The translations under genes and the position numbers were made by a program. Positions 11,502 to 31,757 of a DNA stretch of 55,780 nucleotides are shown one piece after another; position 1 is the first letter of the stretch; each line of letters opens with the position of its first letter. Source of the DNA: an uncultured Candidatus Saccharibacteria bacterium (GTDB lineage Bacteria; Patescibacteriota; Minisyncoccia; Phycocordibacterales; UBA12088); contig CAZWNC010000006.1 of the NCBI GenBank assembly GCA_964635195.1, positions 1-55,780 of the forward strand, read 5' to 3'. The notes beneath the pieces were generated by a model. The model searched no databases, had not been told where the DNA came from, and worked only from the letters and a program-made list of their open reading frames with translations.

Positions 11502-11699
11502 AAGTATATTTGCGCTAGGTCGTTATTGCTTAGTAAGAAAGCTCCACGGGGGCGTGAAAGTCATGTTTGCATTGTAACGCAGGAAAACGGATGCATGCCC
11601 TGTGCATAACTTTTAGAAAACAAAACAGCCTCAAGGTCACTATTTTGTAACTAAAGGTGACCGTTTTTGGCCGCCTCTCGAGAGAAACGTCACCGCATA

Positions 11700-11761: not shown

Positions 11762-13333
11762 CTACAGATCGTTGCCTGAATACGAAAGATTGAAACTCTT
11801 GTTGACGAGCGGAAAGTCGGGTACCACTTCATCCACCACTGTCTCAGGAAACGCCTGCCAGTTCATGAAGGAGGGGTCACGCACCTTCACGCGGGAAATA
11901 GCACTACTCGCATCAGTACACACTACGTACACAATTTCACCCCGCCAACCCTCAACGACCGACACCGCAATCGCTGTTTTCTTGAAATGAATGACCGGGT
12001 CACGCTTGATCGCTTTCGTGTCGGATAGACGCTTCACCGCCTGCTCTATGAGCGATAGTGCACTGTATACTTCACCAACGCGGACAAAGAAGCGGGCGTA
12101 AACATCCCCGGCGTCTTTGGTGACTACCTCCTGTGTGAGCTTACCATATGCGGCATACGGAAAATCGGCACGAGTATCACGCGCCACACCCACCGCACGC
12201 GCCGGAACCCCCACCACGCCGTACTCCCACACATGCTCGCGCGTAAGATCGCCCGTCGTTGCCAAACGATCATAGAGTGAGACATTTTCCTCCGCAATTG
12301 CGATAACTTCTTCAAAATCCTTTCGTAGTGCGATCAGGTCCTCAACAAGTGCCATGCGCTCGTTTCGTGGAATATCTTTTTCGACACCACCCACGACGTT
12401 CACTCCACGTAAAAAACGGCTACCAGTCAGACGCTCATTCCATTGCATGACCCGCTCACGTAACCGCGACCCGTTTGCACCACCAAAGGTAAACGCAGTG
12501 TCAAGCATCATGAAACCGATATCGGAAAAATGGTTCGCGAGGCGCTCAAGCTCAGCAAAGATCACGCGTGTCAGATGCGCATGTTCGGACACCTTCACAT
12601 GTCCAAGTTGTTCAAGTGCGATACAGAACGCAAGTGAGTGCGAAAAAGAACTATCACCGGACACGCGCTCGGAAAGTGCGACTTTTTTGTCGAGTGGAAG
12701 TGTCTCAAAAAGCTTCTCGATCCCTTTATGCTTCCACCCAAGCATCGGATCAAGCTTTTTGATACGCTCGCCCAACACACTGAAGCGAAAATGCCCCGGC
12801 TCGATGATGCCCGCATGCACAGGTCCGACCGGTATCTCATACACTCCCTCTCCTGCAATCGTATGGAAATGGTATTCGGTCAGTGGATCAGGCGCATTCG
12901 TCGGTGCATGGAGCACTGCGTCCTTGCGCAAAGGATACTCCCCTTTCCGGAAACTCACCTGCCCCATCGTGGGGCGCAGGTCAGGATGCCTCTCGGGTGT
13001 AAGACCGAACAGGGTTGCTATCTCACGTTCGTAAAACGAGCACTGCATGCGTACTGTCGCAAGTGAAGGAAAAGAGTCAATGGTGTCAAAATATGGAATC
13101 AGTACCTTTTTTGAGGGAAGGTGTCCAAAAACGTACATGATGCGAAAGGTCTTGAGATCAGACCTTCGGTCGCTCGCGACGATCGTATGGAGCACCACAT
13201 CCTCACTTTGCAAAAGTGTAGTCAAGGTCGGCATATGATTTTCGCGAGTAAGCGCGAACAACGTGCATACACCGTCAACCTCTTCGCGTGTATTAACAGG
13301 AATGAATATTTTGTGTGATGTGACACTTTGCAT
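11762..13333 (-). CDS. HycE/HyfG-like large subunit (NuoC-NuoD fusion) lacking all four NiFe-ligand cysteines
   Basis: The N-terminal 30-kDa/NuoC-like part has FYEREIATLFGL..HPDLR. The NuoD/HycE-like part has VGPVHAGIIEPGHFRFSVLGE and GWKHKGIEK. The L1 motif RxCGxCxxxH reads RVSGDSSFSH. The C-terminal DPCxxCxxR reads NLSYSGNDL followed by the stop. Confidence 0.85.
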   Translation of the reverse strand: MQSVTSHKIFIPVNTREEVDGVCTLFALTRENHMPTLTTLLQSEDVVLHTIVASDRRSDLKTFRIMYVFGHLPSKKVLIPYFDTIDSFPSLATVRMQCSFYEREIATLFGLTPERHPDLRPTMGQVSFRKGEYPLRKDAVLHAPTNAPDPLTEYHFHTIAGEGVYEIPVGPVHAGIIEPGHFRFSVLGERIKKLDPMLGWKHKGIEKLFETLPLDKKVALSERVSGDSSFSHSLAFCIALEQLGHVKVSEHAHLTRVIFAELERLANHFSDIGFMMLDTAFTFGGANGSRLRERVMQWNERLTGSRFLRGVNVVGGVEKDIPRNERMALVEDLIALRKDFEEVIAIAEENVSLYDRLATTGDLTREHVWEYGVVGVPARAVGVARDTRADFPYAAYGKLTQEVVTKDAGDVYARFFVRVGEVYSALSLIEQAVKRLSDTKAIKRDPVIHFKKTAIAVSVVEGWRGEIVYVVCTDASSAISRVKVRDPSFMNWQAFPETVVDEVVPDFPLVNKSFNLSYSGNDL

Positions 13334-13346
13334 ACTTGCTTATTTA

Positions 13347-14810
13347 TTATTCCGAAACATATACCGATGCGGCATTTGTAACAACTTCGGCAAGTGGTGC
13401 AGGTATGTAAAAACCGAGAATGACTGCCGCAATGAGAAGCATGCCGATCGGAAGGACAGTCAGTATGCCACGCTCTCCCACGACAATCGCTTGCCCGTCG
13501 GGAGTATGCGTAGGAGGTGTCCCGAACAGCATCTTGGTGCCATGAATCAAAAAGCCGACAAAAACGAGCACAAAAGCTGCTATGAGTACTGCTATTAGTA
13601 GCGGGTGTGCCCCAACACCACTTGATATGATGCCGAGCTTCGACATAAAGGTGCCAAAGGGAGGCATGCCCACAATGGCGATAACTCCCAGGAAAAAGAG
13701 TGGGCCGGTCCATGGCAACACCGTGAGAACGCCTCGCACGTTGCCAATCTTACCCGAACCGTAGGCAAGAAACAGATTACCAGAGGTAAGAAACAGTGCG
13801 GATTTTACAAGCGCGTGATACACCATATGAAGCATCGCGTACACCACAGCCACACCACCAAGGCCGAACCCGACCGCAAGTATTCCCATATTCTCGATAC
13901 TTGAGTACGCAAGCATACGCTTGTACCTGTTTTGAGTAAGCAGCATGAAGCCCATCACTATGATTGACAACACCCCGAAGCCGAGCAGTATGTTGCTACT
14001 CCACCACGGACCAACCACTTCATCCACTACCACCTTGTAGCGCGCAATTGCCAAAAATGCGGTATTCAGAAGAACGCCCGAGAGGAGTGCACTAATGGGT
14101 GCAGGTGCCTTACCATGTGCATCGGGAAGCCATGTGTGCATGGGTACCAAACCTGCCTTGGTACCGTAACCGATAAGAATGAAAATGAAAGCGACCTTCA
14201 TTGCTAGCGGGTCGAGTGTCGGTGCCGCCGTGAGGAGGTCACCCCATGACAACAGACCGGTGTGTGATCCGACCAATGACAGCATAGTGAGCGTACCGAA
14301 AAAACCGATGAGCAACCCGACACTGTTCACGACGAGATACTTCCAACCGGCTTCAAGAGAGCTTTTCTTTTTGTAGAAACTCACGAGGAATACGGTCGAA
14401 AGAGTGGTTGCCTCAATCGCCGCCCACATAACAATCGGATGTTGCGCCATGACCGAGAGGAGCATGGCGAACATAAACAGATGAAAGAGTACCCAAAATT
14501 GCACAGTACGCCCGGCACTCACAATCTCCTTCTGACGTTCTGCGCGTAAGTAGCCGACGGAATACACCGCGGCCGCAAGTCCCACAAACGTGATAATAAG
14601 TACGAGTATCGTGCCAAACGCATCCAACGCAAGAAAAGTAGGCGATCCTCCCCCATGAACGCCAGTGAGCAATGCGTGCACCGCAACAGCAAGTTCAAGT
14701 ATGGCCGCAAGCACGCCGACACCTTCAATCCACCCCAACCTTCGCGAGGTACACGCAAACGATACGAGTGCTGCAAGAAGTGGTATGAGTATAAGGTAAG
14801 TGAGGGTCAT
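13347..14810 (-). CDS. HyfF/NuoN/NuoM-like antiporter-type membrane subunit (PF00361)
   Basis: 487 aa with about 14 TM helices. Typical motifs are GLVPMHTWLPDAHGKAPAPISALLSGVLLNTA and RMLAYSSIENMG. Confidence 0.85.
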   Translation of the reverse strand: MTLTYLILIPLLAALVSFACTSRRLGWIEGVGVLAAILELAVAVHALLTGVHGGGSPTFLALDAFGTILVLIITFVGLAAAVYSVGYLRAERQKEIVSAGRTVQFWVLFHLFMFAMLLSVMAQHPIVMWAAIEATTLSTVFLVSFYKKKSSLEAGWKYLVVNSVGLLIGFFGTLTMLSLVGSHTGLLSWGDLLTAAPTLDPLAMKVAFIFILIGYGTKAGLVPMHTWLPDAHGKAPAPISALLSGVLLNTAFLAIARYKVVVDEVVGPWWSSNILLGFGVLSIIVMGFMLLTQNRYKRMLAYSSIENMGILAVGFGLGGVAVVYAMLHMVYHALVKSALFLTSGNLFLAYGSGKIGNVRGVLTVLPWTGPLFFLGVIAIVGMPPFGTFMSKLGIISSGVGAHPLLIAVLIAAFVLVFVGFLIHGTKMLFGTPPTHTPDGQAIVVGERGILTVLPIGMLLIAAVILGFYIPAPLAEVVTNAASVYVSE

Positions 14811-15499
14811 ATGTGTGTTTCCGGTTCATCACGCTCGGACAGGTGGGTCATCTTTGAAATATCGAGACTCCCGAATCGTTCATGCACCATAGTCATGAAG
14901 AACACGGAAATAAGCACCAGTACAATCGTCTCAAGAGTCACCGCAAGCTCAAGCGCAAGCGTCTGGTGAAAACCCGCAAGCGCAGCGACGAAGACAACCC
15001 AATTCTCCAGCGCCAAGAGTGCGATGACTTGTGAAAAGGCTTCTTTGCGATTTACCGCAAGGAAGAGTGTCGCGAGGATTCCCGCAAGGTGAAGCGGTGC
15101 GTACGCGAGCACCGGTGACACGGTTGAAAAGAGTGCGCCCGGCATCGTCATACGGACGACCGAAAACGAGAGTACCGCAATACCTGCAAGCACGACCAAT
15201 GTCCAGGGTGTGTCGAGGTACGTGTCCGAAGCAAAACGCGCTCCCAGGCGACGCATGACGCGTCGATACAACACGGGCACAAGCAACGCTTTAGTGAGTA
15301 TCGTCACACCTGCAACAACAAAAAGGAACGGGCTCGATTCCTCAATTGCGGCGATCACGAAGAAGCAGGCGACGAGTAAGGATTGCAGCACGTAGAGCGT
15401 AATCAAAAGCGACGTCTTGCGTGTGGCATGCATAAGTACCATGAGCAGGAACATCCCCGCATCCAACGTACCGCTTATAAACATGAGAGTAGGTAGCAT
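14807..15499 (-). CDS. HyfE-like (NuoK-related) membrane subunit
   Basis: 230-aa polytopic membrane protein occupying the HyfE position between the NuoH-like and NuoN-like genes. Its stop overlaps the next start by 4 nt. Confidence 0.6.
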   Translation of the reverse strand: MLPTLMFISGTLDAGMFLLMVLMHATRKTSLLITLYVLQSLLVACFFVIAAIEESSPFLFVVAGVTILTKALLVPVLYRRVMRRLGARFASDTYLDTPWTLVVLAGIAVLSFSVVRMTMPGALFSTVSPVLAYAPLHLAGILATLFLAVNRKEAFSQVIALLALENWVVFVAALAGFHQTLALELAVTLETIVLVLISVFFMTMVHERFGSLDISKMTHLSERDEPETHI

Positions 15500-15508
15500 G
15501 GTGTTGAG

Positions 15509-16447
15509 TTATACCGTGGCAAGTGCGAATGCAACTGCGCCGATGATGAGTGCCGCAAAGAGAAGACGCGGGATACGGAAAATGCGCAACTTTGCAAGCG
15601 TTGATTCGATTGTCGCTATCACAAACGCAACGAGTGCACACTTCACTAAAAAGATACTCATCGCAGCACCTACCGTCACCACGTCATTCGATATGGAAAA
15701 ATCGAGCACGCCCCATGGTACAAACACTGATGTCAAAATCGCCGTAAAGACCATGAGCTTCAGTGCACTCGCCCACTCCATAAGTGCGAGCCGCTTGCCC
15801 GAATACTCCAAGAGCATAGCTTCATGCACCATGGTAAGTTCGAGGTGAGTGGAAGGGTTGTCGACCGGTATGCGCGCATTCTCCGCAAGAAGTGCGATGA
15901 AAAAACCCACCCCCGCGACGACGACCGGAAGCAGATGCACAAACGACATGCCGTGAATATGCGCTGCGATATCGCCCAGGTTTGTTGATTCCGCAAGCAG
16001 CGCAAGTGGCAAGAGTGCGAAAAGAAGTACTCCTTCGGCAACCGCCGCAAAGGTCATTTCTCGACTCGAACCAAAACCACCAAATGAACTTCCCGCGTCC
16101 ATACCTGCAAGGGCGAGAAAAAACGTACCTAAGGCAAGGGTGTAAATGAACACAAAAAGGTTACCGAGCACTCCCGTATTGCCGAGAGCTACGAGCGGTA
16201 CGCCCGCAGCCACAGTGAGTGTTGCTCCAAATACGAGGTAGGGTGCGGCACGAAACACCCATGATGCATCCTCCGGCACAATCTCATCCTTCGTAAACAA
16301 TTTACGTAAATCTCGATATGGCTGAAAAACACTCGCACCTCGCCTGCCCTGGTAGGACGCTTTTATTTTTCGAATACTGCCCACCAGAAGCGGCGCAAGA
16401 GCTGCAAGTACCATCGATTGAATGCTGTACAGAAGAATGAAAGCCAT
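15509..16447 (-). CDS. HycD/HyfC/NuoH-like membrane subunit
   Basis: It aligns by eye along its length with E. coli HycD. Matching segments are LAPLLVGSIRKIKASYQGRRGASVFQPYRDLRKL, DAGSSFGGFGSSREM and LLEYSG. Confidence 0.85.
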   Translation of the reverse strand: MAFILLYSIQSMVLAALAPLLVGSIRKIKASYQGRRGASVFQPYRDLRKLFTKDEIVPEDASWVFRAAPYLVFGATLTVAAGVPLVALGNTGVLGNLFVFIYTLALGTFFLALAGMDAGSSFGGFGSSREMTFAAVAEGVLLFALLPLALLAESTNLGDIAAHIHGMSFVHLLPVVVAGVGFFIALLAENARIPVDNPSTHLELTMVHEAMLLEYSGKRLALMEWASALKLMVFTAILTSVFVPWGVLDFSISNDVVTVGAAMSIFLVKCALVAFVIATIESTLAKLRIFRIPRLLFAALIIGAVAFALATV

Positions 16448-16453
16448 GATGTG

Positions 16454-18514
16454 TTATAGGGCGATAAGTAACAATGCGCAGAGTGTCACAAACATGTAGA
16501 GGAGGTACGTGTTCACGTTACCACTTTGCAACATGCGTGTGCCCCGTGCCGCAAAAGCCGCGACTCGCTCGAGTGGCCTATAGCAATACTTCTGCCACAC
16601 ATCAACGAGATGTACTTCAAAACGAACTCGTATCGCTTCACCTGACACGGATTCAGTGGAAACGTGCTCTTTGGTGGGGGCGAGTGCGCGAAAGATCACC
16701 ATAAGCGTACGCGCAAAAGCGGTTGCAGTGATTTCCGCACGCTCAACCGGTCCTGCAAAAGCAGATGACTCAGCCGGAGCACCACAGGCCCACACTCGCC
16801 CCGAAGTTTCGCGTCGCTCCCCCGACCACACGCGCACCAGTGCGTATGTGACACCCACAGCGACCACAAGCATGACATACATCATTGGAAACGCGATTGC
16901 GTACGAGCTCTGTGAAGAAGGATCGTTCCCTACCGCAAAGAGGGTTTGTGGCAACGCGTCATGGAAACCGAGACCGTGTAAGACACTGGAGATATACACA
17001 ACAACCGATGAAGCAAATACCCCTAAAAACAAGGTGAGGAGGGCGAGTAAGCTCATACCCAAGGTCATTGAAAGAGGCTCACGAATCTTGCATGTGGACG
17101 CATCCGGTAACGGAGCACGCGGTCGAGCAAGAAACGTGGTGCCAACCGCCTTCACAAAACACGCCGCAGCAAGTCCTGAGGTGAGTGCGAGAAAACCGAT
17201 AGCTCCGACAAAAAGCGCCTTCATGTAAAGCGTACTCTCTGCAACACCCGCAAGAAGGGTCTGGAACGTCAGCCACTCACTTGCAAACCCATTGAGCGGT
17301 GGCAAACCGGAAATGGCAAGCGAGCCAACAAGAAAGAGGAATGCCGTTGCGGGAAGAATACGGATCAGGCCGCCATACCGCTCCATGTTGCGCGTGTGAG
17401 TGGTTTGCACAACCGAACCGGCTCCGAGAAACAGCAGCCCTTTGAAGATCGCATGATTCAAGGTGTGGAAAAGTGCAGCCGTCAAGGCAACACCGGCAAA
17501 TGCATACTCTCCATATCCGACAAAAATGCCGGCACTTCCGATTCCCAACAAAATGATGCCAATATTTTCAACACTATGGTATGCCAGTAATCGCTTGAGA
17601 TCGTGTTCGGAAAGGGCGTACAGAACGCCGAGAAGCGCCGACAACGCACCGAGTACAAGGATAATGACACCCCACCAAATAGTCGTCGGAAACCCAAGAA
17701 GGTCAAAAAAGAAACGAATGATCATAAAGATTGCAATCTTCAGCATGACACCGGAGAGAAGTGCGGACACGTGACTCGGCGCTGCGGGATGCGCCTCGGG
17801 AAGCCAGATGTGCAAGGGTACGATACCCGCCTTGATACCAAGACCGATAAGGGCGGCTGCGAGCGCACCATGTCGCACAAGTGGTGACCATGCCTCCATC
17901 TGACGTATCGTATCGAAGTCAAACGAGCCCGCCGCATGCCCCACCACCATGAGCGCAAACATAAGAAATGCGGTACCGACATGCGTCATGAGAAGGTACA
18001 GGAAACCCGCACGCACGTTCGAGGCCTCATGATGCTCATGCACAATAAGGAAATACGAGGCAAGCGACATAGCCTCCCACGCGATTAAAAAGAAAATTCC
18101 ATTGTTTGCCACCACGACGGTATACAGACTCGCGATGAACGCCGTGTAGAAAAAACCGAATACACCCGGACGAATAGCACGTTCGCGTGACACGTACCCG
18201 TACCCGTAGAGCGACGCCGCTACAACAGCTAGCGATATGACGAGTATGAACCACGCCGACAAACCATCAACATGGAATGCATACGTAAGAAACGAAAACG
18301 GGGACGAGTATGATGCGGAAAGAATCGCATGCGACGAGAGTACGGCGAGTGAGAAAACAGTTCCAATCAACCCGGCGAAGAGTGCCGCGCCGTGTGATAC
18401 CACGTTCGCAACACGATGCGCCTTGAGCGGGATTGCAAAAAGTGACACAAGTGCTCCGACACCCAAGAGTGCGAGTATGCTGTAGAAATGCAGGATGAGC
18501 GGTGTGGCAAACAT
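16454..18514 (-). CDS. HyfB/HycC/NuoL-like antiporter-type membrane subunit (PF00361)
   Basis: 686 aa. Motifs: WEAMSLASYFLI, GIVPLHIWLPEAHPAAPSHVSALLSGVMLK, LLAYHSVENIG. Confidence 0.85.
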   Translation of the reverse strand: MFATPLILHFYSILALLGVGALVSLFAIPLKAHRVANVVSHGAALFAGLIGTVFSLAVLSSHAILSASYSSPFSFLTYAFHVDGLSAWFILVISLAVVAASLYGYGYVSRERAIRPGVFGFFYTAFIASLYTVVVANNGIFFLIAWEAMSLASYFLIVHEHHEASNVRAGFLYLLMTHVGTAFLMFALMVVGHAAGSFDFDTIRQMEAWSPLVRHGALAAALIGLGIKAGIVPLHIWLPEAHPAAPSHVSALLSGVMLKIAIFMIIRFFFDLLGFPTTIWWGVIILVLGALSALLGVLYALSEHDLKRLLAYHSVENIGIILLGIGSAGIFVGYGEYAFAGVALTAALFHTLNHAIFKGLLFLGAGSVVQTTHTRNMERYGGLIRILPATAFLFLVGSLAISGLPPLNGFASEWLTFQTLLAGVAESTLYMKALFVGAIGFLALTSGLAAACFVKAVGTTFLARPRAPLPDASTCKIREPLSMTLGMSLLALLTLFLGVFASSVVVYISSVLHGLGFHDALPQTLFAVGNDPSSQSSYAIAFPMMYVMLVVAVGVTYALVRVWSGERRETSGRVWACGAPAESSAFAGPVERAEITATAFARTLMVIFRALAPTKEHVSTESVSGEAIRVRFEVHLVDVWQKYCYRPLERVAAFAARGTRMLQSGNVNTYLLYMFVTLCALLLIAL

Positions 18515-18527
18515 AGGTGATTACAGA

Positions 18528-19070
18528 TTATGCACGAAGACGCTTAGCACCCTCTTGTTCGAGTATTGACAGCAATGCGGACACAATAGCATGCGGACTT
18601 GGAGGATCGCCCGGTATCTCATAATCGACCGGTATCACCTCACGCAGACTGTTATATATCGCATAGCTGTCTCGAAAAACACCACCGTGAATCGCCCCAT
18701 CACCGACAGCGACCACAATACGCGGGGTTGGCGTCGCTTCATAGGTGCGACGAACTGCCTCAGCCATATTGCGAGACACGGGGCCGGTAACCATGAGCAT
18801 GTCAGCGTGACGCGGTGACGCGACAAAATGCACACCAAAACGCTCCACATCATAGTAGCTATTTGTAAGAGCGTTCAACTCCTGTTCTTCAGCATTACTG
18901 GAACCTGCATCAACCTCACGGATTGCGAGCGAGCCGGAAAACACCTTTCGAATCTCCTCGGCGAGTCGTTGTCCCGTAACAGCGAGGTCACCATCCTCAG
19001 CCACTAAAAAATCCGATACGGGAATGACCGTACGCGGCGTCGTCACTATTTTTTTGAGCATTTGATACAT
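18528..19070 (-). CDS. HycG/HyfI/NuoB-like small subunit with no cysteine at all
   Basis: The core VASPRHADMLMVTGPVS..PRIVVAVG..GG is clearly NuoB/HycG family. The four [4Fe-4S] ligand positions read GSSNAEE (for GxCNxCE), VGDGA (for GxCA) and IPGDPP (for PGCPP). The 180-aa protein contains zero Cys. Confidence 0.85.
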   Translation of the reverse strand: MYQMLKKIVTTPRTVIPVSDFLVAEDGDLAVTGQRLAEEIRKVFSGSLAIREVDAGSSNAEEQELNALTNSYYDVERFGVHFVASPRHADMLMVTGPVSRNMAEAVRRTYEATPTPRIVVAVGDGAIHGGVFRDSYAIYNSLREVIPVDYEIPGDPPSPHAIVSALLSILEQEGAKRLRA

Positions 19071-19120: not shown

Positions 19121-19148
19121 ATCATATGCCGAATACGTAAAGTGTCAA
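19121..19148 (-). promoter_or_regulatory. sigma70-like promoter of the hydrogenase-like operon
   Basis: The minus strand reads TTGACA (19148-19143), a 16-nt spacer, then TATGAT (19126-19121). It lies about 50 nt upstream of the ATG at 19070. Confidence 0.45.
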
Positions 19149-19237: not shown

Positions 19238-20281
19238 ATGCCACGGCACCCACACCCGCATATCGAAGAGATACTCGACCGAAACGCGGCACGCGTGATC
19301 GCACACTACGAAGAACGTCACATTCGAAGAGAATATTTCGCACAGCACCCCTTCCACTACATCTACGTAGGATGTATGGACGGTAGAACAAGTCACCTAC
19401 CCCAAACGTTTGGTATCCCTGTTGGGTGTGCTGAATTTTTTCAAACCGGTGGCGCTATGTTCGACATAGGATGGAAGTATTTCTCAAACCTCCTTACCGA
19501 ATCGATCCAATTCGGCCTTACCAAAAAGCGTACTGTGGTCATTTTGGTCTCAAGCCACTTTTCCGGACACTATCCCAATCATGGATGTCGCGCGTTCGAG
19601 AACGACCGCCGTGCGGCACGCACCTATGTACTCCGCCTCGCAAGAGATATCAGGTACGCAGTCGAACCATATGGCGGTGACGTGCACGTTCTGTCAATCG
19701 AGTTCGACACTGATGACGATTCGGTCATTCTGTATGGTGAAACCGGGCGTGTCGACACGTCACATTTCCTGTCGAGTGAATGCGGCCTGAAAGAAGTACT
19801 CTATGACAGTTTTCCTTCGTATGTGGACTCAGACATGGGCGAGGAGCTGCATACCCTCGTACACAACAACATTGAACACGTACACTCGGTACTTCGTAAC
19901 AGACGAGACCACACCGCTTGTTCTCATTGCGAAACGACACTCCTCGTGGGACGAGGTGCGGGAACGTGGCTCAACCCACATCGCAACGCGGGCATCATTC
20001 TGTTTCCCGAAGGAGAACACCTCGACGATTTTATCGTAACCGCTGGAAAAATACTCCAAAGTAATGCGAAGCGAGATAAAATCTTGCAGAAGCATGGTGC
20101 AGTCATTATGCCCTGCTCAGCATACGGTGATCGTCGAAATGAACGTTTTGCTATTGCTCGGGTGAAAGCGTACCAGCGAATAATCGAACGATTGTTTGCT
20201 CAGCATCTGCCAAACCTACGCTTCGCACTCTTCCCTGCAACAGTCGACCTCACCACATGGCAACTCACTGCATGTGACTAA
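19238..20281 (+). CDS. hypothetical protein with beta-carbonic-anhydrase-like motifs (tentative)
   Basis: Likely start is the ATG at 19238, preceded by AGGAG at 19227-19231; the ORF track starts at TTG 19202. Motifs are YVGCMDGR (CxDxR), GCAEFFQTGGA (resembles GDxFVxRNxGN) and VVILVSSHFSGHYPNHGC (His/Cys pair after a beta-strand). Confidence 0.3.
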   Translation: MPRHPHPHIEEILDRNAARVIAHYEERHIRREYFAQHPFHYIYVGCMDGRTSHLPQTFGIPVGCAEFFQTGGAMFDIGWKYFSNLLTESIQFGLTKKRTVVILVSSHFSGHYPNHGCRAFENDRRAARTYVLRLARDIRYAVEPYGGDVHVLSIEFDTDDDSVILYGETGRVDTSHFLSSECGLKEVLYDSFPSYVDSDMGEELHTLVHNNIEHVHSVLRNRRDHTACSHCETTLLVGRGAGTWLNPHRNAGIILFPEGEHLDDFIVTAGKILQSNAKRDKILQKHGAVIMPCSAYGDRRNERFAIARVKAYQRIIERLFAQHLPNLRFALFPATVDLTTWQLTACD

Positions 20282-25927: not shown

Positions 25928-27307
25928 CTACCGTGTGCCGTAGTACCGACAAAAACTGTCCATGACGCCTTCGGGAGTAAGAACGTGTGTACAGCATGTG
26001 GCAATACGTGCGACATCCCACGTTCTCACGTCCATGAACGGCTTGATAAAGACCATTTTGACGTCTCTACGACTCAGTCCGAGTCGTTCGAGGTAGTCCC
26101 TGAGACTGAACGTATCGCAACCGCACGAACTGAGCGAGTCATCGGTATCAAAGTTTACACGGTTCACAATGAGTGGCGTAAACACATTGACGTCGAGAAT
26201 GTTCGAGATCGGTTGCCACCTACCACCGATACGCACCAAGAAGCCAACCATGCCACAATTCGGGTCACTGCACGGTAACGGTATCCACGATCCGAGATTC
26301 AATATACCGCCACGAGCAATACTGTGAATGACATCAGCAACATTAATCGGCACCTCAAGACGTTTCTGTGGCTCGTTTCGACCGGACATAAACTCCGGTT
26401 GGTATACGACCCAACGAACATTATCGTCACTGAGAGCGTATGCGAGCGCACTACCGCAGCCAAACTTCGTATCGTGCGACACAGTCATCACCAATGCAAC
26501 CGGAATCTGCGCCAGCTGGCATGCATGCATGGCACGTTCACGGATGGAGCGAAAATCTCCACCACGAAGTGCCACCTGACCACTCTTTTGCGTACCGTCA
26601 AACTGCAGGTACACAGCGAACCTTCCTCGTGGAACGATTGCCTGCAATCTCTCCATAAAGAGCGGGTCTGCCAACTTGATGCCGTTGGTGGTAAGCAAGA
26701 CGTCCGACACTCGCCCTTCTCGCGCAAGCCATTCGATAATCCGAAAAAGCTCGGGGTGAAGAGTTGGCTCTCCGCCTGAAAGTTGCAAGATGTCGATTCT
26801 GTCCTGTCGGTCGAGCACTGTACGCACCTGTTCGACAAAGGCATCGAAAGGCAGAAGACCCAACTCCGCATCGTTTGAAGCCTTCGGACTGTCAGCATAG
26901 CAGGTGGGGCACGAAAGATTGCAACCGCGCACAATTTCCACCACAAGAGTGCACGTATGCAACTGACTCGCCGTTTTCGCATTCTCGCCGAGTACAGCCG
27001 TGCCACAACCTTCGGTTCCGCACGCACAAGCGGTATCCTGTTCCGTCACGTAATAAAATCGTGCATCGCTTGCAATGCGTGAGCTCGTCACCCCGCAAGT
27101 GGGACAGTACTTGCGCAGGTACACACGAGGCGGAATGTCATTCGAACGCCAGGCCTCGGCATGCACTTCTTGCCCGCACTCATTACAGCGGGATCGTTTG
27201 TTTCCTACAAGCAACGATCCGTTGCCACAAAAGTGATTCGTGCCGAGAGTGTTTGTACAGCAGTTCTTCAGGAGAGTGGGGACCGTTTCTATTTCATAAT
27301 TGCTCAC
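25928..27307 (-). CDS. radical SAM protein with N-terminal rubredoxin/zinc-ribbon-like CxxC pairs and extra Cys clusters (COG1964 / Tes-GDGT-MAS-like, tentative)
   Basis: CNLSCPTC is a canonical CxxxCxxC motif, followed by LSGGEPTL. Upstream are CNEC...(22 aa)...CPTC and CACGTEGC. The C-terminal part has PCSDPNCG, SSCGC, IKPFMDVRTWDVARIATCCTHVLTPEG..FCRYY. Confidence 0.7.
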   Translation of the reverse strand: MSNYEIETVPTLLKNCCTNTLGTNHFCGNGSLLVGNKRSRCNECGQEVHAEAWRSNDIPPRVYLRKYCPTCGVTSSRIASDARFYYVTEQDTACACGTEGCGTAVLGENAKTASQLHTCTLVVEIVRGCNLSCPTCYADSPKASNDAELGLLPFDAFVEQVRTVLDRQDRIDILQLSGGEPTLHPELFRIIEWLAREGRVSDVLLTTNGIKLADPLFMERLQAIVPRGRFAVYLQFDGTQKSGQVALRGGDFRSIRERAMHACQLAQIPVALVMTVSHDTKFGCGSALAYALSDDNVRWVVYQPEFMSGRNEPQKRLEVPINVADVIHSIARGGILNLGSWIPLPCSDPNCGMVGFLVRIGGRWQPISNILDVNVFTPLIVNRVNFDTDDSLSSCGCDTFSLRDYLERLGLSRRDVKMVFIKPFMDVRTWDVARIATCCTHVLTPEGVMDSFCRYYGTR

Positions 27308-27391: not shown

Positions 27392-28129
27392 TCACGCTGA
27401 TTTCCGACGAGTGGCAAAGTATATTTTTATTATGTCCCTTGAGTACCAAAGAACGAATAGTATGCACACAATCTGGACACTGTTCATGTGCAACCAGAGA
27501 GGAGTCGTCTCTTTTAAGAACTCAATGCCGAAACGGAGTGAGAAATAACTTGCGATAAACATACGGAAAGATACGCCTGGGGTATCGAGTGCAAAAAGTA
27601 GCGAAGCGGGTCGAAACTTCTTTGCGTACCCATATCCGATAAGAAATAACGACAGAAACGCAATCTCATAAAGTGAGTTCGGATGACGAAGCATACCGTC
27701 ACCTTGTTCAAGACACCAAAAGTAGTCACACGGTCCACCAACCGTGTGGTCCTCAACACCCATCACAAAACAACCGATTCTTCCGATAATGATGGCGACT
27801 GCTAGCGGTACGAGTGTCCTATCACCCGTCCATACCGAGATGCCAAGTATCTTTTTTACTACCTCGACACCTACGATACCGCCCGCAACACCACCGATTA
27901 TGGTCTTACCGGCGACATAGTACACAAGGTCGGTAGCTTGCAAAAAAAGCACTGGGTCTTCGAGAGCAGCGATTAAGCGACTGCCCACGAGCGCACCCAC
28001 GAGCGCACCAACCAAAAGGTAGAGTCGCTGCTCTTCTTTGAGCGAATCGTGCTCGCGAGAACGCAAGTATAAACGCACACCGACGAACATCGCTACCAGT
28101 TCCGCAAAATAATGGAACAGGAAGTTCAT
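27392..28129 (-). CDS. prolipoprotein diacylglyceryl transferase (Lgt) family membrane protein
   Basis: GKTIIGGVAGGIVG, IGRIGCFVMG (GRxGNF-like) and RHPNSLYEI (HPxxLYE) match PF01790. At 245 aa it is shorter than typical Lgt. Confidence 0.65.
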   Translation of the reverse strand: MNFLFHYFAELVAMFVGVRLYLRSREHDSLKEEQRLYLLVGALVGALVGSRLIAALEDPVLFLQATDLVYYVAGKTIIGGVAGGIVGVEVVKKILGISVWTGDRTLVPLAVAIIIGRIGCFVMGVEDHTVGGPCDYFWCLEQGDGMLRHPNSLYEIAFLSLFLIGYGYAKKFRPASLLFALDTPGVSFRMFIASYFSLRFGIEFLKETTPLWLHMNSVQIVCILFVLWYSRDIIKIYFATRRKSA

Positions 28130-28144
28130 TTCAATTTCAAGTGT

Positions 28145-28540
28145 CTAGAAACCAAATATTAGAAATAACCCGTACACTCCCCAAAAAAATCCCCACCCTC
28201 CGAGAGCGAGCGCAAGTATCCACGCAAGTGTGGTCTTCCACCACGCATCGAACGCCTTACGCGCAAGCATACTACTGCGAAGCGCGAGGAAACCTGCAAA
28301 AATGTAGATAATCGCAGGGATGATCATGAAGAAGTTCTGGGAAAACCCCTCGAAACCTGATGAAACAAGAACCGTCCAACAAGAACCGAAACCGATCACG
28401 TTGAGTACCAGCGAATAGTTGAGGAGTCGCAAGACGGGTGATTTGGTGTTTTCTTTGCTATATGGGATGTAAGGCGATCCTCCTGTACCCGTACTGTTTG
28501 CAGGCCTAAATTCGGGTGGAGTATTTTTATCAGAAAACAT
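28145..28540 (-). CDS. small 3-4 TM membrane protein, paralog A
   Basis: 131 aa, MFSDKNTPPEFRPANSTGTGGSPYIPYSKENTK... It is a paralog of 30592-30987. Confidence 0.6.
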   Translation of the reverse strand: MFSDKNTPPEFRPANSTGTGGSPYIPYSKENTKSPVLRLLNYSLVLNVIGFGSCWTVLVSSGFEGFSQNFFMIIPAIIYIFAGFLALRSSMLARKAFDAWWKTTLAWILALALGGWGFFWGVYGLFLIFGF

Positions 28541-28572
28541 ATAGTATGTTCATTTGCAAGAGTAATGGGGTA

Positions 28573-28601
28573 AGTATAGAGGCACTTCGACAGTCTTGTA
28601 A
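28573..28601 (-). promoter_or_regulatory. sigma70-like promoter of paralog A
   Basis: The minus strand reads TTACAA (28601-28596), a 17-nt spacer, then TATACT (28578-28573). It lies about 35 nt upstream of the ATG. Confidence 0.4.
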
Positions 28602-28771
28602 AGTATTTTGTTTTTCTAATACATTGAATAGTGCCGCTCGAGTACGTGCGTAATCCGTTTACACAAAATATTTACAGACTCAGGAGATCAGGTGTTGCGG
28701 TTGGAGGTTTAAGAAAGTTGTCCCTATAATTTCTTGGCATCCAGCACAAAGAGCATTAGTGGTCCATTGCT

Positions 28772-29998
28772 TTACTGAGAGGTAGCACACCTTATGTCAC
28801 TAGGATACGCATCTAAGGTAACTATTTCCTCATGTAGATTATCGATACAAAGGTACGTTCCGTTCCCAACGTGTGATGTGACAGCATATCTTTTAACATC
28901 TGAACTACATATAACTTTATTTTGAGACTCTTTTTCCATACTACTCATCATACCGGAAAGTTGCCTATCGTCGCATAAATCACTATAATTTATTTCCGAG
29001 CCTTCTGAGGCTAGCGTTGGGCGGAATTTCCAAAAAAACTGAGTATTTGGAATTGAAGTAAGGTACTTTTTTAAAAGATTTTCTATTGTGATGAAAGTAA
29101 TTTCTTCCTGAGTCAGGCTTCTTGATTTATCTGATATCTTAATATTTTTTACAAAATTATCTGTAATTGATACTGCCTGATCGACATTGTCTTCAGTGTT
29201 TTTAGTAAAAATTAAGGAGGTCACTTCTAGAAAAACATCTTCTTCATCATACTTAAGTGGAATAGTATAATATACAGATATTACTTGTTGTTGTTTTACA
29301 ATGAATCTTTCTGCTTTATAACCACCTATACTCACTTTCTCTTCTGTATAGGCTGGTCGGTTAGGCATATCCGCATATCGAGGATTCGTTGCAAAGATTT
29401 TCATATCTTGAAGACCATTCATATCACTAAAATCTTCTTTTGAGAGTGGAGCGACTGAAACCAAAAATTTTTCAATATTCGGATATTTTTCTTCCAAATT
29501 TTTATATTTAAATGTCACGAGGTCATGCGCCTCCCCGCCTGGATACTGAGCTATATTATCTGGATCATTAACATCATATAATTCTAAATCCCATTCAGTG
29601 TTTAGATATGGCAAAGTATAGAGACCCGAAGGGTGTGTATACGTAGCAAAATCGGCATTATTTTCAATTAATGCGCTATCGTTTGTTACTGTGGTTGAAA
29701 AGTATAATACAACAGCAATAATAAAAATTCCGAGTATACCAAATACAAGTTTTTTGTAGGGATGTAAAGGTTTCCGTGCCGTGTAATTTGTGGCGATATC
29801 CGGCACCAATTCATCTTCTCTTACTTGAGTTTTTTTACTGAAGCTTTTTTCTTCTCCGAAAATGGCATTGTATGCACTTGTTATTTCCTCTTCGCTCCAT
29901 CCGCTCTCTCTCATTTGTGGAATAATTTTTTCTAAAGAATTTATTTGCTCTTTGTTGGAATTTATAAGATTAACCAGTTCTTTTGGGGGGATGTCCAT
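28772..29998 (-). CDS. hypothetical single-pass membrane protein, low-GC (likely acquired)
   Basis: Likely start is MDIPPKE at 29998. One TM helix (LVFGILGIFIIAVVLYF) and a large extracytoplasmic domain. Sampled lines are about 25-45% GC against about 50% in flanking genes. Confidence 0.55.
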   Translation of the reverse strand: MDIPPKELVNLINSNKEQINSLEKIIPQMRESGWSEEEITSAYNAIFGEEKSFSKKTQVREDELVPDIATNYTARKPLHPYKKLVFGILGIFIIAVVLYFSTTVTNDSALIENNADFATYTHPSGLYTLPYLNTEWDLELYDVNDPDNIAQYPGGEAHDLVTFKYKNLEEKYPNIEKFLVSVAPLSKEDFSDMNGLQDMKIFATNPRYADMPNRPAYTEEKVSIGGYKAERFIVKQQQVISVYYTIPLKYDEEDVFLEVTSLIFTKNTEDNVDQAVSITDNFVKNIKISDKSRSLTQEEITFITIENLLKKYLTSIPNTQFFWKFRPTLASEGSEINYSDLCDDRQLSGMMSSMEKESQNKVICSSDVKRYAVTSHVGNGTYLCIDNLHEEIVTLDAYPSDIRCATSQ

Positions 29999-30205
29999 AT
30001 ATTCACATACTAACATAGATTATATTGCGGATTAAGGTGATCAGATATATATCAGACAGTTAGCGTGGACAAACTCCCGCGCATACGGTGAAGAAGTTGT
30101 CCATACAACGGACCATTCATACTGATCGCATTTACGTTCGTTTGCTTAGAGCTCAAAGAGATATTCCTCACTCATGTATTGGACTCCTTGTCACTGTTGT
30201 GTGCT

Positions 30206-30517
30206 TTAGGGGTGGTGATTGTGAGCACCTCGTTCAGACATACATACAGAAACTCGCCTCAAGTGAGTTTGAGAGTCGCCCCAGCTCAACACTTTACGTA
30301 AGTACAAATCGAGGATGACCGTGAGATAGCTGAAGCCGTATTGAAGTCGAATGCAGATGAAGTCCATACTCCATGGTTTGCGTACCATGCAACAACGCAA
30401 GAGGTAGGGGTATACGACATGCTCCATATGGGAAACGGGGTCACCATTTTGTCCTTCAGCAACATGAGGAGTCACTACTCTTCTTTGTGCGTATCGTGCT
30501 CGCGAGAACACAAGCAT
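30206..30517 (-). mobile_element. truncated IS3-family-like transposase fragment (start of rve/DDE integrase core)
   Basis: KPWSMDFICIRLQYGFSYLTVILDLYLRKVLSW matches the W..D.TYI....G..YL..V.DL.SR.V.GW block around the first catalytic Asp of IS3-type OrfB. The frame ends about 20 codons later and no remainder lies downstream. Confidence 0.5.
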
Positions 30518-30576
30518 AAACGCACGCCGACGAACATCGCTACCAGTTCCGCAAAATAATGGAACGGGAAGTTCAT
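30475..30576 (-). pseudogene. 5' fragment of the lgt-like gene (33 codons then stop)
   Basis: MNFPFHYFAELVAMFVGVRLCLCSREHDTHKEE-stop. At DNA level it is near-identical to the first ~30 codons of 27392-28129. Confidence 0.8.
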
Positions 30577-30591
30577 TTCAATTTCAAGTGT

Positions 30592-30987
30592 CTAGAAACC
30601 AAACAATATAAGTAACCCTTGCACTCCCCAAAAAAATCCCCACCCTCCGAGAGTGAGTGCAAGAATCTGTGCAAGGACGACCTTCCACCGCACATCGAAC
30701 GCTTTATGCGCAAGTAAAATACTTCGAAACGAGAGCAATCCAGCAAATAAATAGCTCACAATAGGAATAACAATCAGAGAACTTGTGAAACTCTTCCTGA
30801 AACCCAACGTAAGATAAACCCATGTGCAAGAACCGAAACCGATCAGATTGATCACCAAAGAATAACTTAGGAGTCGCAAGACGGATGATTTGGTGTTTTC
30901 TTTGGTATACGGGTTGTAAGGCGATCCTCCTGTACCCGTACTGTTTGCAGGCCTGAATTCGGGTGGAGTATTTTTATCAGAAAACAT
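30592..30987 (-). CDS. small membrane protein, paralog B
   Basis: Start MFSDKN at 30987. The N-terminal ~40 aa and C-terminal ~20 aa are almost identical to paralog A; the central TM region is diverged. Confidence 0.6.
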   Translation of the reverse strand: MFSDKNTPPEFRPANSTGTGGSPYNPYTKENTKSSVLRLLSYSLVINLIGFGSCTWVYLTLGFRKSFTSSLIVIPIVSYLFAGLLSFRSILLAHKAFDVRWKVVLAQILALTLGGWGFFWGVQGLLILFGF

Positions 30988-31009
30988 AATATGCAAGAGT
31001 AATGGGGTA

Positions 31010-31038
31010 AGTATAGAGGCACTTCGACAGTCTTGTAA
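31010..31038 (-). promoter_or_regulatory. sigma70-like promoter of paralog B (duplicate of 28573-28601)
   Basis: It has the same TTACAA-17-TATACT element, located inside repeat copy 2. Confidence 0.4.
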
Positions 31039-31664: not shown

Positions 31665-31757
31665 GGGGAGCAACCAAAAAAGAACCCTGGTTCCTTTTTA
31701 CTCCCGATCGCATACGAGCTTGAGTCCTAGCCAACATCATCGTCACCATATTCCTAG

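Follow-up and report, generated by a model that had tools for sequence, protein, structure and literature searches.

An Ehr-type complex without metal-binding cysteines in Patescibacteria: conservation, gene neighborhoods, and possible function

What does a hydrogenase-like complex do once every cysteine that would bind its metals is gone? The question is raised by six genes on the minus strand, at positions 11762-19070 of a 55,780-nt stretch of DNA from an uncultured Saccharibacteria bacterium (hereafter the window). These genes encode, in order, NuoB-like, HyfB-like, NuoH-like, HyfE-like, and HyfF-like proteins and a NuoC-NuoD fusion (Table 1).

An intact operon without metal ligands

The gene order and coordinates proposed by a sequence-only reading of this locus agree with the minus-strand open reading frames and their Pfam and family-model matches. 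The six genes are intact and close-set (successive gaps of 13, 6, 9, -4, and 13 nt), as had been described, and the upstream TTGACA-16-TATGAT promoter is present in a 167-nt divergent intergenic region common to the operon and a carbonic anhydrase gene. The terminator said to lie downstream is weaker than claimed, and the region has no excess of terminator-like sites over shuffled sequence.

Table 1. Features of the Ehr operon and its surroundings in the window.
Feature	Length	Position	Strand	Evidence
EhrS, NuoB/HycG-like	180 aa	18528-19070	-	PF01058 6.7e-25; HycG 1.9e-25
EhrA, HyfB/HycC/NuoL-like, antiporter-type	686 aa	16454-18514	-	PF00361; NF005086 643 bits (HyfB model); 7z0s_C (HycC) 1.2e-65
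EhrB, HyfC/HycD/NuoH-like	312 aa	15509-16447	-	PF00146 4.5e-45; 7z0s_D (HycD) 1.4e-47
EhrC, HyfE-like small membrane subunit	230 aa	14807-15499	-	NF008556 4.8e-15, below the model's cut-off
EhrD, HyfF/MbhH/NuoN-like, antiporter-type	487 aa	13347-14810	-	NF005044 413 bits (HyfF model); 6cfw_H 1.2e-34
EhrL, NuoC-NuoD fusion, HycE-like	523 aa	11762-13333	-	PF00329 and PF00346; 7z0s_E (HycE) 8.3e-59
CsoSCA-type beta-carbonic anhydrase homolog	347 aa	19238-20281	+	PF20686 3.9e-8; divergent from the operon
Promoter, sigma-70-like TTGACA-16-TATGAT		19121-19148	-	Consensus match only (11/12)
Weak terminator-like hairpin	7 bp, 3 GC pairs	11542-11559	-	About 200 nt past the EhrL stop

The small subunit, EhrS, contains no cysteine, and its four [4Fe-4S] ligand columns are occupied by S, E, G, and D when it is aligned to MbhJ (6cfw_J) and HycG (7z0s_G). 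Alignment of EhrL to HycE (7z0s_E) puts S, S, S, and G in the four NiFe columns, and the protein terminates in NLSYSGNDL, close to the maturation cleavage position of HycE. These alignments bear out the earlier description of a B/CD module that has neither NiFe nor proximal-cluster ligands. The AF2 model of EhrL resembles HycE (TM 0.80), with low confidence in the pocket segments 153-204 and 500-523. The reported lack of ferredoxin, hyp, and maturation protease genes likewise holds across the window: the CxxCxxCxxxC ferredoxin motif is absent from every ORF of at least 50 aa, and a Pfam scan of ORFs of at least 150 aa reveals no hyp, HycF, or HycI family. Ferredoxin, NuoE/F/G, FdhA, and flavoprotein genes are missing from the window and do not recur in the gene neighborhoods of operons of the same clade. 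A radical SAM gene at 25928-27307 indicates that the organism still makes FeS proteins.

The membrane subunits retain residues that, in alignments, correspond to the charged residues canonical for the antiporter-like subunits of complex I, Mbh, and Mrp. Among 20 FeS-less sequences (the window and 19 further loci), EhrA E147, K228, H235, K259, and K358, EhrD E133, K218, H225, and K336, and EhrB E189, D196, E203, and E209 are invariant, and EhrB E214 is Glu in 19 and Asp in one. EhrC has no Pfam match and no sequence relative in the PDB.

Loss of all cofactor ligands is what a dead gene set would show, but a relic in decay, or an artifact of assembly or sequencing, is scarcely credible here. The operon also occurs in a sister strain assembled independently (L171; Logan SRR11088468); its proteins are 96.5-98.3% identical in amino-acid sequence and share the Cys-less motifs, on which ground the artifact was rejected, and all six frames are whole in both assemblies. 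Decay is refuted by the tree described below and by dN/dS, which is 0.02-0.21 for every operon gene relative to this strain; the peripheral subunits are conserved across the clade to the same degree as the membrane subunits, the Cys-less state persists down to 37% identity, and the GC content of the operon equals that of its flanks. The view that this is not pseudogene decay is thus upheld, and the operon is, as judged from its substitution pattern, kept under strong selection despite the loss of every metal-binding cysteine.

A clade within the Ehr family

Comparison with its relatives shows that the operon encodes a Patescibacteria/CPR-type Ehr (energy-converting hydrogenase-related) complex, EhrS-A-B-C-D-L, which descends from Hyf-type group 4 [NiFe]-hydrogenases; the NiFe site is lost as in all Ehr, and loss of the remaining [4Fe-4S] cluster is unique to the Patescibacteria Ehr clade. 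Relatives number in the thousands, and those with a named source among the best 120 are assigned to Patescibacteria/CPR or, by JGI, to Ni,Fe-hydrogenase III. A neighbor-joining tree built from large subunits groups the 21 FeS-less loci without exception in a single clade; it has 27 tips, and no tip has a small subunit with cysteine in all four ligand columns (CCCC). Outside the clade this set is kept by 114 small subunits, from other Ehr and six true hydrogenases, with one small subunit reading PCCC, two truncated ORFs, and the anomalous locus L165 as the exceptions. A monophyletic FeS-less clade of the kind that the sequence-only reading proposed to seek by phylogeny exists, and what that reading took for an unusual case is the normal state of a lineage spread across Patescibacteria. 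EhrS is 53-65% identical across the clade; its ligand columns read SEGD, TCDD, DCDD, DCDN, TEGD, or similar, and this variability speaks against a new, conserved metal site.

Ehr systems elsewhere (Geobacter sulfurreducens GSU0739-45, comammox Nitrospira, ammonia-oxidizing archaea, and Actinobacteria) comprise the same six subunit types. Their large subunits also lack the CxxC NiFe motifs and end in NKSFNLSY(S/T)GNDL, and they have no separate ferredoxin subunit, an absence that is general for Ehr operons and not special to the window. However, they keep the four small-subunit cluster cysteines, of which the window's clade retains no full set. E. coli formate hydrogenlyase/Hyf (group 4a, PDB 7Z0S) provides the best structure and sequence match for EhrL, EhrA, EhrB, and EhrS, but it possesses a NiFe site, a proximal cluster, the HycF and HycB ferredoxins, FdhF, and hyp and HycI genes, none of which the window operon has.

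Gene neighborhoods

The typical neighbors of non-CPR Ehr operons are ArsR regulators and GAF histidine kinases, those of the CPR clade ATP synthase genes. In six of the 17 clade loci with enough flanking sequence, among them the deepest branches of the clade (L148 and L160), the operon is immediately preceded by the F1-ATPase genes atpG-atpD-atpC in the same orientation. The atpC-ehrS gap is 31-257 nt in the four of the six that were measured (L094, L160, L148, and L047). The window itself lacks this adjacency, as do at least nine of the 17 loci. Patescibacteria are thought to run their ATPase in reverse, keeping a PMF (PMC10633639).

The second neighbor, which like the ATPase linkage escaped the sequence-only reading, is the divergent CsoSCA-type carbonic anhydrase, whose start we place at M13 of an ORF opening at 19202. 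Its AF2 model (pLDDT 82) matches CsoSCA structures in Foldseek (9g4t, 2fgy, and 8thm; E values of 1e-13 to 3e-15), and C58, D60, R62, H119, and C129 do not vary among 160 family members. By these residues the protein keeps both its zinc site (Cys-His-Cys) and its Asp/Arg dyad intact, and it is predicted to be cytoplasmic. The same divergent neighbor occurs in L171, L085, and L086; at that position L083 carries instead a mini beta-CA-like gene, unrelated to it, with CSDPR and HEECG motifs. Two non-CPR Ehr operons (L098 and L103) run on into SulP and a CsoSCA-like gene. Of 11 SulP matches, eight are no farther than 1.5 kb from an operon end (p = 2.8e-5), an enrichment seen in about six independent lineages. 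At L168, a member of the same carbonic anhydrase family is situated between a SulP gene and a cluster of DabA and antiporter-like genes, and at L087, L169, and L170 members have no adjoining Ehr or antiporter-like gene. The family was not found in the other clade loci or in most of the approximately 165 Ehr loci. Adjacency to the carbonic anhydrase is limited to a narrow sub-lineage and may in part be due to common ancestry of the gene order; divergent transcription implies co-regulation at most and shows no physical complex. The carbonic anhydrase neighbor and the ATP synthase linkage are the only positive clues to function.

What the complex may do

Since the operon remains under strong selection without any metal-binding cysteine, ions are most likely moved without redox chemistry. 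Because there are no NiFe or cluster ligands, no Fe-S partner nearby, and no decay, the complex cannot be a hydrogenase, as had been stated, and an electron-transfer role is very unlikely (8/8 ligand columns non-Cys). We tentatively favor a redox-independent, gradient-driven, Mrp-like cation/proton exchanger, perhaps with coupling to CO2/HCO3- chemistry. The homology of EhrA and EhrD to MrpA and MrpD (1e-22 to 1e-39; 7QRU, 6Z16, and 7D3U) extends to the Glu of TM5 and the Lys of TM7 and TM12, which they retain in common with Mrp and the Mrp-like module of Mbh (6CFW), and Mrp works without redox input, the mode that we propose for this clade. The antiporter-type EhrA and EhrD, the NuoH-like EhrB, and EhrC would form the ion path, and the EhrS/EhrL cap would close and gate the NuoH-side channel, and hence be kept, while carrying no electrons. 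In fermentative cells such a complex may work with the F-type ATPase in balancing or interconverting H+ and Na+ gradients and in adjusting cytoplasmic pH; in the window's lineage, co-regulation with the cytoplasmic carbonic anhydrase would tie proton flux to CO2/HCO3- interconversion. However, a peripheral arm and NuoH-, NuoB-, and NuoCD-like subunits are lacking from canonical Mrp antiporters, whose extra small subunits (MrpB, E, F, and G) were not identified in the operon. Reviews report no measured activity for any Ehr complex.

A vectorial carbonic anhydrase or inorganic-carbon pump is a less probable, on balance unlikely, function, in which the membrane arm would energize, or be energized by, CO2 hydration at the neighboring enzyme or in the former NiFe pocket; ion flow through EhrA/EhrD would remove the hydration proton and trap CO2 as bicarbonate, and the reverse would serve pH homeostasis. 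The model is DabA/DabB and cyanobacterial NDH-1MS with CupA/CupS, in both of which, as here, the genes pair a zinc protein of beta-CA fold with complex-I-type antiporter-like subunits (10.1101/476713; 10.64898/2026.03.13.711513; PMC6981117). It would account for an intact zinc enzyme adjoining the operon in four related assemblies, a nonhomologous substitute in L083, the order EhrL-EhrS-SulP-CsoSCA-like in distant operons, the SulP enrichment, and the arrangement at L168. Yet the window enzyme is CsoSCA-type (PF20686), not DabA (PF10070) or CupA; it is divergently transcribed, has neither a transmembrane helix nor an obvious docking element, and is paired genetically with a full six-subunit Ehr instead of a single DabB or a redox-active NDH-1. 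The rarity of the family among Ehr loci, its members away from Ehr or antiporter-like genes, and the fact that Patescibacteria are not autotrophs also count against a pump.

The former NiFe pocket is harder to reconcile with simple gating by EhrL. Residues H173, E178, H181, S225, D227, S517, Y518, G520, and D522 are equally invariant in the clade and in FeS-containing Ehr, and the C-terminal NKSFNLSY(S/T)GNDL is invariant in more than 580 loci from many phyla, which suggests a role more specific than capping. New non-redox chemistry in the pocket, such as a hydrolysis or decarboxylation whose proton release or consumption drives ion pumping, would fit this invariance and the fact that EhrS and EhrL are conserved best among the six subunits, and it would make Ehr complexes an unrecognized type of chemically driven pump. 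We consider it improbable since H173, E178, and H181 are hydrogenase heritage (HycE has the same H...EPGH motif), the gene neighborhood yields no substrate candidate, and the pocket segments are those modeled with low confidence. The same invariance, together with the frequent Asp and Glu at replaced EhrS ligand positions, could be taken to mean that the complex is still a redox enzyme, receiving electrons through a non-cysteine-bound cofactor in EhrS/EhrL from a formate dehydrogenase or flavoprotein encoded elsewhere; FDH-Ehr complexes have been hypothesized for Margulisbacteria and Saganbacteria (PMC6349859), and formate raises Ehr subunits in Geobacter (PMC7894505). This too has little to recommend it given the loss of all eight canonical ligands, the differing EhrS substitutes, the missing partner genes, and the general lack of quinones and respiratory chains in CPR bacteria (PMC10633639).

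The window operon belongs to the CPR "Ehr" clade of Jaffe et al. (2020, PMC7304191), passages of which describe this clade as monophyletic within Ehr, with a large subunit devoid of metal-binding cysteines, and infer no interaction with H2. The account in those passages covers the large subunit only; neither they nor the literature searched mention loss of the small-subunit cluster, retention of ion-path residues, or linkage to ATPase, carbonic anhydrase, or SulP genes. That CPR Ehr have lost their NiFe cysteines was already published in 2020; what appears new is the clade-specific FeS loss, the kept ion-translocating machinery (invariant charged residues, low dN/dS), and the gene-neighbor pointers to ion and inorganic-carbon handling. 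The cofactor-free Ehr type, previously described only in part, is typical of the whole clade.

Composition and ligand loss of the operon

The operon encodes a complete and selected six-subunit complex of the energy-converting hydrogenase-related (Ehr) type that lacks any canonical redox-cofactor ligand, a state typical of the whole clade of Patescibacteria (CPR) to which it belongs. Ehr denotes the energy-converting or Ech-hydrogenase-related complexes, composed of EhrA-D, L, and S (PMC6349859, PMC7894505), and we name the subunits after PMC7894505. Family assignment with Pfam and NCBIfam recovers the full set of NuoL-like, NuoH-like, HyfE-like, second antiporter-like, large, and small subunits in six open reading frames separated by intergenic gaps of 13, 6, 9, -4, and 13 nt; the same six-gene composition is present in most of the approximately 165 related loci long enough for the operon. 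The HyfE match of EhrC is weak, and this subunit has neither a Pfam domain nor a PDB relative. No Rfam or tRNA match was obtained between the genes of the operon, and a Shine-Dalgarno sequence comparable to the AGGAG of the neighboring carbonic anhydrase (CA) gene is absent before all six ehr genes.

Alignment of EhrL with HycE (7z0s_E, 8.3e-59) pairs LSDRVCGICGFAHS with LSERVSGDSSFSHS and, at the C-terminus, SLDPCYSCTD with SFNLSYSGND, which is followed by a leucine and the stop codon. The four NiFe columns in this alignment read S, S, S, and G, and EhrL has neither the L1 (RxCGxCxxxH) nor the L2 (DPCxxCxxR/H) cysteines of hydrogenases. In EhrS, which contains no cysteine at all, the four proximal [4Fe-4S] columns read S, E, G, and D in alignments to MbhJ (6cfw_J) and HycG (7z0s_G). 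The CxxCxxCxxxC motif of a 2x[4Fe-4S] ferredoxin-like subunit (HycF/HyfH/EchF/MbhN) does not occur in window ORFs of at least 50 aa, nor is a fused ferredoxin motif found in any of 22 small subunits of the FeS-less type, that is, those that have lost the cluster cysteines. Among the Pfam-scanned ORFs of at least 150 aa in the 55.8-kb window, we identified no homologs of hyp, HycF, or HycI and no C-terminal endopeptidase. In contrast to group 4 [NiFe]-hydrogenases (Hyf/Hyc/Ech/Mbh), the operon is without NiFe cysteines, proximal cluster cysteines, and a ferredoxin-like subunit. The sequence-only reading had called the module redox-dead, a conclusion that is well supported, and its observations are correct overall, both in the family assignments and, by alignment to solved structures, in the ligand columns. 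The TTGACA-16-TATGAT promoter that it proposed is a real match, whereas the downstream terminator amounts to a weak hairpin.

Coordinates of the operon and of features in the window and in related loci (L-numbers)
Feature	Locus	Coordinates	Strand	Length	Family match
Six-gene ehr operon	window	11762-19070	minus
EhrS, NuoB/HycG-like small subunit	window		minus	180 aa	PF01058
EhrA, HyfB-like	window		minus		PF00361; hydrogenase-4 subunit B model (NCBIfam), 643 bits
EhrB, NuoH/HyfC-like	window		minus		PF00146
EhrC, HyfE-like	window		minus		NCBIfam model, 4.8e-15, below cut-off
EhrD, HyfF-like	window		minus		NCBIfam model, 413 bits
EhrL, NuoC-NuoD fusion	window	11762-13333	minus	523 aa	PF00329 + PF00346
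Promoter match	window	19148-19121	minus
CsoSCA-type CA homolog	window	19238-20281	divergent from operon	347 aa	CsoSCA catalytic domain PF20686, 3.9e-8
Radical SAM gene	window	25928-27307
Region with GC dip at 28-30 kb	window	28001-32276
ORF in low-GC region	window	28772-30016		414 aa	no Pfam match
Interval with no ORF of at least 150 aa	window	30016-32276
tRNA-Gln	window	31862-31933
Three histidine-phosphatase genes	window	33132-35208	minus	247, 217, 242 aa	PF00300
Small protein directly upstream of EhrS	L083	3618-4112	operon strand	164 aa	Pro_CA_2, 4.6e-6, just under cut-off
PEP/C3-type neighbor	L083	11723-11917
Ehr, SulP, and CsoSCA-like array	L098	12745-15816			SulP PF00916
Ehr, SulP, and CsoSCA-like array	L103	12364-15462			SulP PF00916
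CsoSCA-like gene, SulP+STAS, and DabA cluster	L168	8170-20586			DabA PF10070
Large subunit with NiFe cysteines	L165	4985-6421
Small subunit of FeS-less appearance	L165	6434-6943

The remaining gene content of the window (GatB, Obg, tRNA synthetases, RsgA, Lgt, DprA, RpoB/C, and a B12-type ribonucleotide reductase) is consistent with a CPR bacterium whose genome is reduced. Two further features were observed: the three histidine-phosphatase (phosphoglycerate-mutase-like) genes are consecutive, paralogous, and partly overlapping, and GC content falls to 0.39 at 28-30 kb, around the 414-aa ORF, while the adjoining interval from 30016 to 32276 holds the tRNA-Gln gene but no ORF of at least 150 aa.

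Placement within Ehr and the FeS-less clade

Scanning the large-subunit alignment against genome and metagenome collections yielded more than 580 relatives from each, of which 160 loci were kept. The closest EhrL relatives are 50-75% identical, carry JGI labels of Ni,Fe-hydrogenase III subunits, and have as named sources Candidatus Pacebacteria, Paceibacterota, Wildermuth-, Vogel-, Kerfeld-, and Azambacteria, and the "Patescibacteria group." Relatives outside CPR belong to Nitrospirota, Rokubacteria, Acidobacteria, Actinomycetes (Streptomyces, Mycobacterium persicum), Thaumarchaeota, Methylococcales, Firmicutes, and others. The related large subunits, with few exceptions, lack the NiFe cysteines and read SSSG, STSG, or SESG in the four columns; seven loci are true hydrogenases with CCCC. 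The genome-scan relatives, the window included, share the C-terminal sequence NKSFNLSY(S/T)GNDL, which is the pattern used by the scan itself. In a neighbor-joining distance tree rooted on HycE and computed without support values, EhrL branches inside Ehr and apart from the true hydrogenases, in agreement with Jaffe et al. (2020; PMC7304191).

Outside the window's clade, 114 small subunits, from non-clade Ehr and six true hydrogenases, keep all four cluster cysteines, whereas every member of the clade has lost CCCC and reads SEGD, TCDD, DCDD, DCDN, TEGD, DCGD, or similar. The 21 FeS-less loci fall in a single clade of 27 tips, none of which has a CCCC small subunit, the remaining six tips being truncated contigs; by this distribution, a single loss of the cluster took place at the root of the clade. 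The window operon shares with Ehr a ligand-free large subunit, the six-gene set, and its tree position, but lacks the small-subunit [4Fe-4S] ligands that are typical of Ehr, although outside its published definition; given the contrast between its clade and all others, we call it an Ehr variant. The sequence-only reading had judged such complete loss to be unusual, which the wider sample contradicts: the cofactor-free state is standard in a large clade, and the NiFe half of the observation was published in 2020.

The FeS-less clade spans Parcubacteria, Microgenomates, and Saccharibacteria labels together with a few MAGs bearing non-CPR labels; the Saccharibacteria label is carried by L007. Four FeS-less-type loci (L003, L004, L006, and L008) are found in MAGs labeled Bdellovibrionales, Thermoleophilia, Fibrobacteria, and Endomicrobiales, with operon GC equal to flank GC; either these bins contain foreign contigs or the clade is not exclusive to CPR. 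A separate locus that branches outside the clade, L165 (OBEQ011768763.1), has a large subunit that keeps the four NiFe cysteines (NKSFNLCYACVDR) and a small subunit of FeS-less appearance (AGSCNAEE, GDGACNG, and PGDPP; columns C, E, G, and D), and may represent an intermediate state or a separate loss. Recent horizontal transfer of the window operon was considered and rejected because its GC content equals that of its flanks, here and in related loci.

Retained residues and gene neighborhoods

The charged residues that define the ion paths of complex I, Mbh, and Mrp do not vary among the 20 clade sequences aligned (the window and 19 loci). These are E147 (TM5), K228 and H235 (TM7), K259 (TM8), and K358 (TM12) of EhrA; E133, K218, H225, and K336 of EhrD; and E189, D196, E203, and E209 of EhrB, in which position 214 is glutamate in 19 sequences and aspartate in one. 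The peripheral subunits are conserved at least as well as the membrane subunits, with clade identities of 53-65% for EhrS and 47-54% for EhrL versus 43-55% for EhrA, EhrB, and EhrD. An AF2 model of EhrL matches HycE with a TM score of 0.80 but is of low confidence in the pocket segments 153-204 and 500-523 (pLDDT below 50, isolated subunit), which are the most conserved stretches of the protein (GPVHAGIIEPGHFRF and the C-terminal NKSFNLSYSGNDL). Such low confidence is expected of elements that become ordered only at the interface with EhrS and EhrB.

Within the FeS-less clade the commonest neighbors are F1-ATPase genes. Of the 17 clade loci with enough flank, six (L001, L038, L047, L094, L148, and L160), the deepest branches among them, have atpG-atpD-atpC immediately before EhrS on the same strand, and ATPase genes are nearby in L002 and L096. 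Where the spacing was measured (L094, L160, L148, and L047), 31-257 nt separate atpC from ehrS. We did not identify ATPase genes in the window. Non-CPR Ehr operons have other flanking genes, namely ArsR regulators in 12 loci and GAF histidine kinases in 19. SulP permeases occur beside Ehr operons in about six independent lineages, and eight of 11 SulP matches lie at most 1.5 kb from an operon end (p = 2.8e-5 versus a uniform spread). Most Ehr loci have neither a CA nor a SulP neighbor.

In the window, the operon is paired with a divergent gene whose longest ORF opens at TTG 19202; its homologs all begin at ATG 19238 (MPRHPHP...), with AGGAG ahead of this start codon. The protein has no sequence match in the PDB even at E = 10, and fold comparison was needed: Foldseek searches with an AF2 model (pLDDT 82) match the carboxysomal CsoSCA structures 9g4t, 2fgy, and 8thm (E 2.0e-13 to 3.1e-15, TMq 0.65-0.68). 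The zinc site Cys-x-Asp-x-Arg...His...Cys (C58, D60, R62, H119, and C129) is invariant in 160 homologs, so that the Cys-His-Cys ligands and Asp/Arg dyad of CsoSCA are present, as is its two-domain fold in the model. The protein is shorter than the CsoSCA structures (457-471 aa), lacks their N-terminal domain, and is not accompanied by carboxysome or RuBisCO genes in the window.

The divergent pairing recurs in L171, an independent assembly (Logan SRR11088468) of a sister strain, and in L085 and L086 (CA 65% and 52% identical). The pairing is absent from L083, a locus whose EhrL is 69% identical to that of the window. The small L083 protein upstream of EhrS contains CSDPR and HEECG motifs; we rejected it as an ortholog of the window CA because no pairwise similarity is detectable. 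Searching the first 80 Ehr loci with the window CA by tblastn gave no match, and an HMM of the CsoSCA-like family found among Ehr loci only the distant, FeS-containing, non-CPR L098 and L103, where EhrA-B-C-D-L-S is followed by a SulP permease, a CsoSCA-like gene on the same strand, and two-component regulators. The CA adjacency is thus real but a minority feature, and the family is not dedicated to Ehr, given that its distant members L087, L169, and L170 have no Ehr or antiporter gene nearby.

Other neighbors were noted in passing. In L168 (GCA_041690635.1, a 414-kb contig), a CsoSCA-like member lies between a SulP+STAS transporter and an opposite-strand cluster of DabA and four Proton_antipo_M genes, a dense inorganic-carbon-uptake neighborhood. 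Enolase, pyruvate phosphate dikinase, glycerate kinase, or a PEP-utilizer fragment adjoins the CA/Ehr region in relatives, downstream of the CA gene in L084 and L085 and at the tabulated position in L083; these neighbors, which may link CA and Ehr in the relatives to PEP and C3 metabolism, were not seen in the window.

Proposed function without a redox driver

We infer that the Ehr complex of the clade moves ions with no redox input. The simplest mechanism of this kind, which we favor tentatively, would be Mrp-like cation/proton exchange through EhrA, EhrD, EhrB, and EhrC, with EhrS and EhrL kept as a cap that gates the channel on the NuoH side. EhrA and EhrD resemble MrpA and MrpD in their TM5 glutamate and TM7 and TM12 lysines; however, Mrp has the small subunits MrpB, C, E, F, and G and no peripheral arm, unlike the window complex, which is predicted to work like Mrp at most and is not a member of that family. 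Such exchange would serve ion-gradient management in fermentative cells and would fit the ATPase linkage; in Patescibacteria this enzyme is likely to operate in the reverse direction (PMC10633639). The CA and SulP linkage points to a possible tie between the proton or sodium flux and CO2/HCO3- handling. The tie could be indirect, through bicarbonate symport on a Na+ gradient or through pH buffering, or direct, through vectorial carbonic anhydrase action as in DAB (10.1101/476713; 10.64898/2026.03.13.711513) or NDH-1MS (PMC6981117). The direct form would be the more novel, and we consider such a CO2-hydration machine unlikely. DAB and NDH-1MS hold a CA-like protein (DabA, PF10070, or a CupA-type subunit) in complex with an antiporter-like subunit, CupA docking on NdhF3, whereas the pairing of Ehr with its CsoSCA-type neighbor is known from gene adjacency, and DabA occurs among the loci only in the unrelated L168.

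Hidden redox chemistry is improbable in our estimate. The radical SAM gene in the window indicates that the organism still builds FeS clusters; in contrast to respiratory complex I (Nuo/Ndh), with its N2 cluster, NuoI, and NuoE/F/G, the NuoB-like subunit of the operon lacks the N2 ligands and none of these electron-input genes is found in the window. We give a similarly small chance to new, non-redox chemistry in the former NiFe pocket, where H173, E178, H181, S225, D227, S517, Y518, G520, and D522 of EhrL are conserved without exception in FeS-less and FeS-containing Ehr alike. The EhrS residues that replace the cluster cysteines are often acidic but differ among clade members, which argues against a conserved new metal site at that position. 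Decay is highly improbable: L171 has the same arrangement of ribonucleotide reductase, operon, and CA at 96.5-98.3% amino-acid identity, dN/dS between it and the window is 0.02-0.21 for all seven genes, and the same Cys-less motifs are present in this second assembly; on this comparison we rejected a pseudogene or artefact.

Ehr complexes were reportedly defined by Marreiros and colleagues in 2013. Jaffe et al. (2020; PMC7304191) describe the CPR sequences as a monophyletic group within Ehr that lacks the metal-binding cysteines of the large subunit and "likely cannot interact with H2," and reviews from 2023 still give the function of Ehr as unknown. The literature searched contains no prior statement on FeS loss in CPR EhrS, on CPR Ehr function, or on Ehr-ATPase or Ehr-SulP/CA linkage. 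As far as this search shows, the disappearance of the last FeS cluster throughout the clade versus its retention in all other Ehr, the complete retention of ion-path and pocket residues in the alignments, and the ATPase, CsoSCA-like CA, and SulP neighborhoods appear to be new.

A broader reading is that Ehr complexes are gradient-coupled CO2/HCO3-/H+ machines rather than orphan redox enzymes, as the cofactor-free Patescibacteria clade would show most plainly; we regard this as quite unlikely. If true, it would make Ehr the third independent pairing of a complex I-type antiporter module with beta-carbonic anhydrase chemistry, after NDH-1MS/CupA and DAB, and the single FeS cluster that other Ehr retain would be dispensable or have a structural or regulatory role. 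Apart from this reading, the SulP and CA linkage bears on inorganic carbon handling, and the ATP synthase linkage on membrane potential and pH in fermentative, respiration-less Patescibacteria. The FeS-less clade is a natural experiment in which the last redox cofactor was discarded while the ion-path residues and the whole peripheral arm stayed under purifying selection, which argues that the core job of Ehr is possible without electron transfer. With six subunits and no metal-centre maturation, the complex is a simple test system suited to heterologous expression and cryo-EM. The clade is thus a good experimental entry to the long-standing question of Ehr function and an extant case in which a coupling module of the complex I type works, or at any rate persists, with no redox driver.
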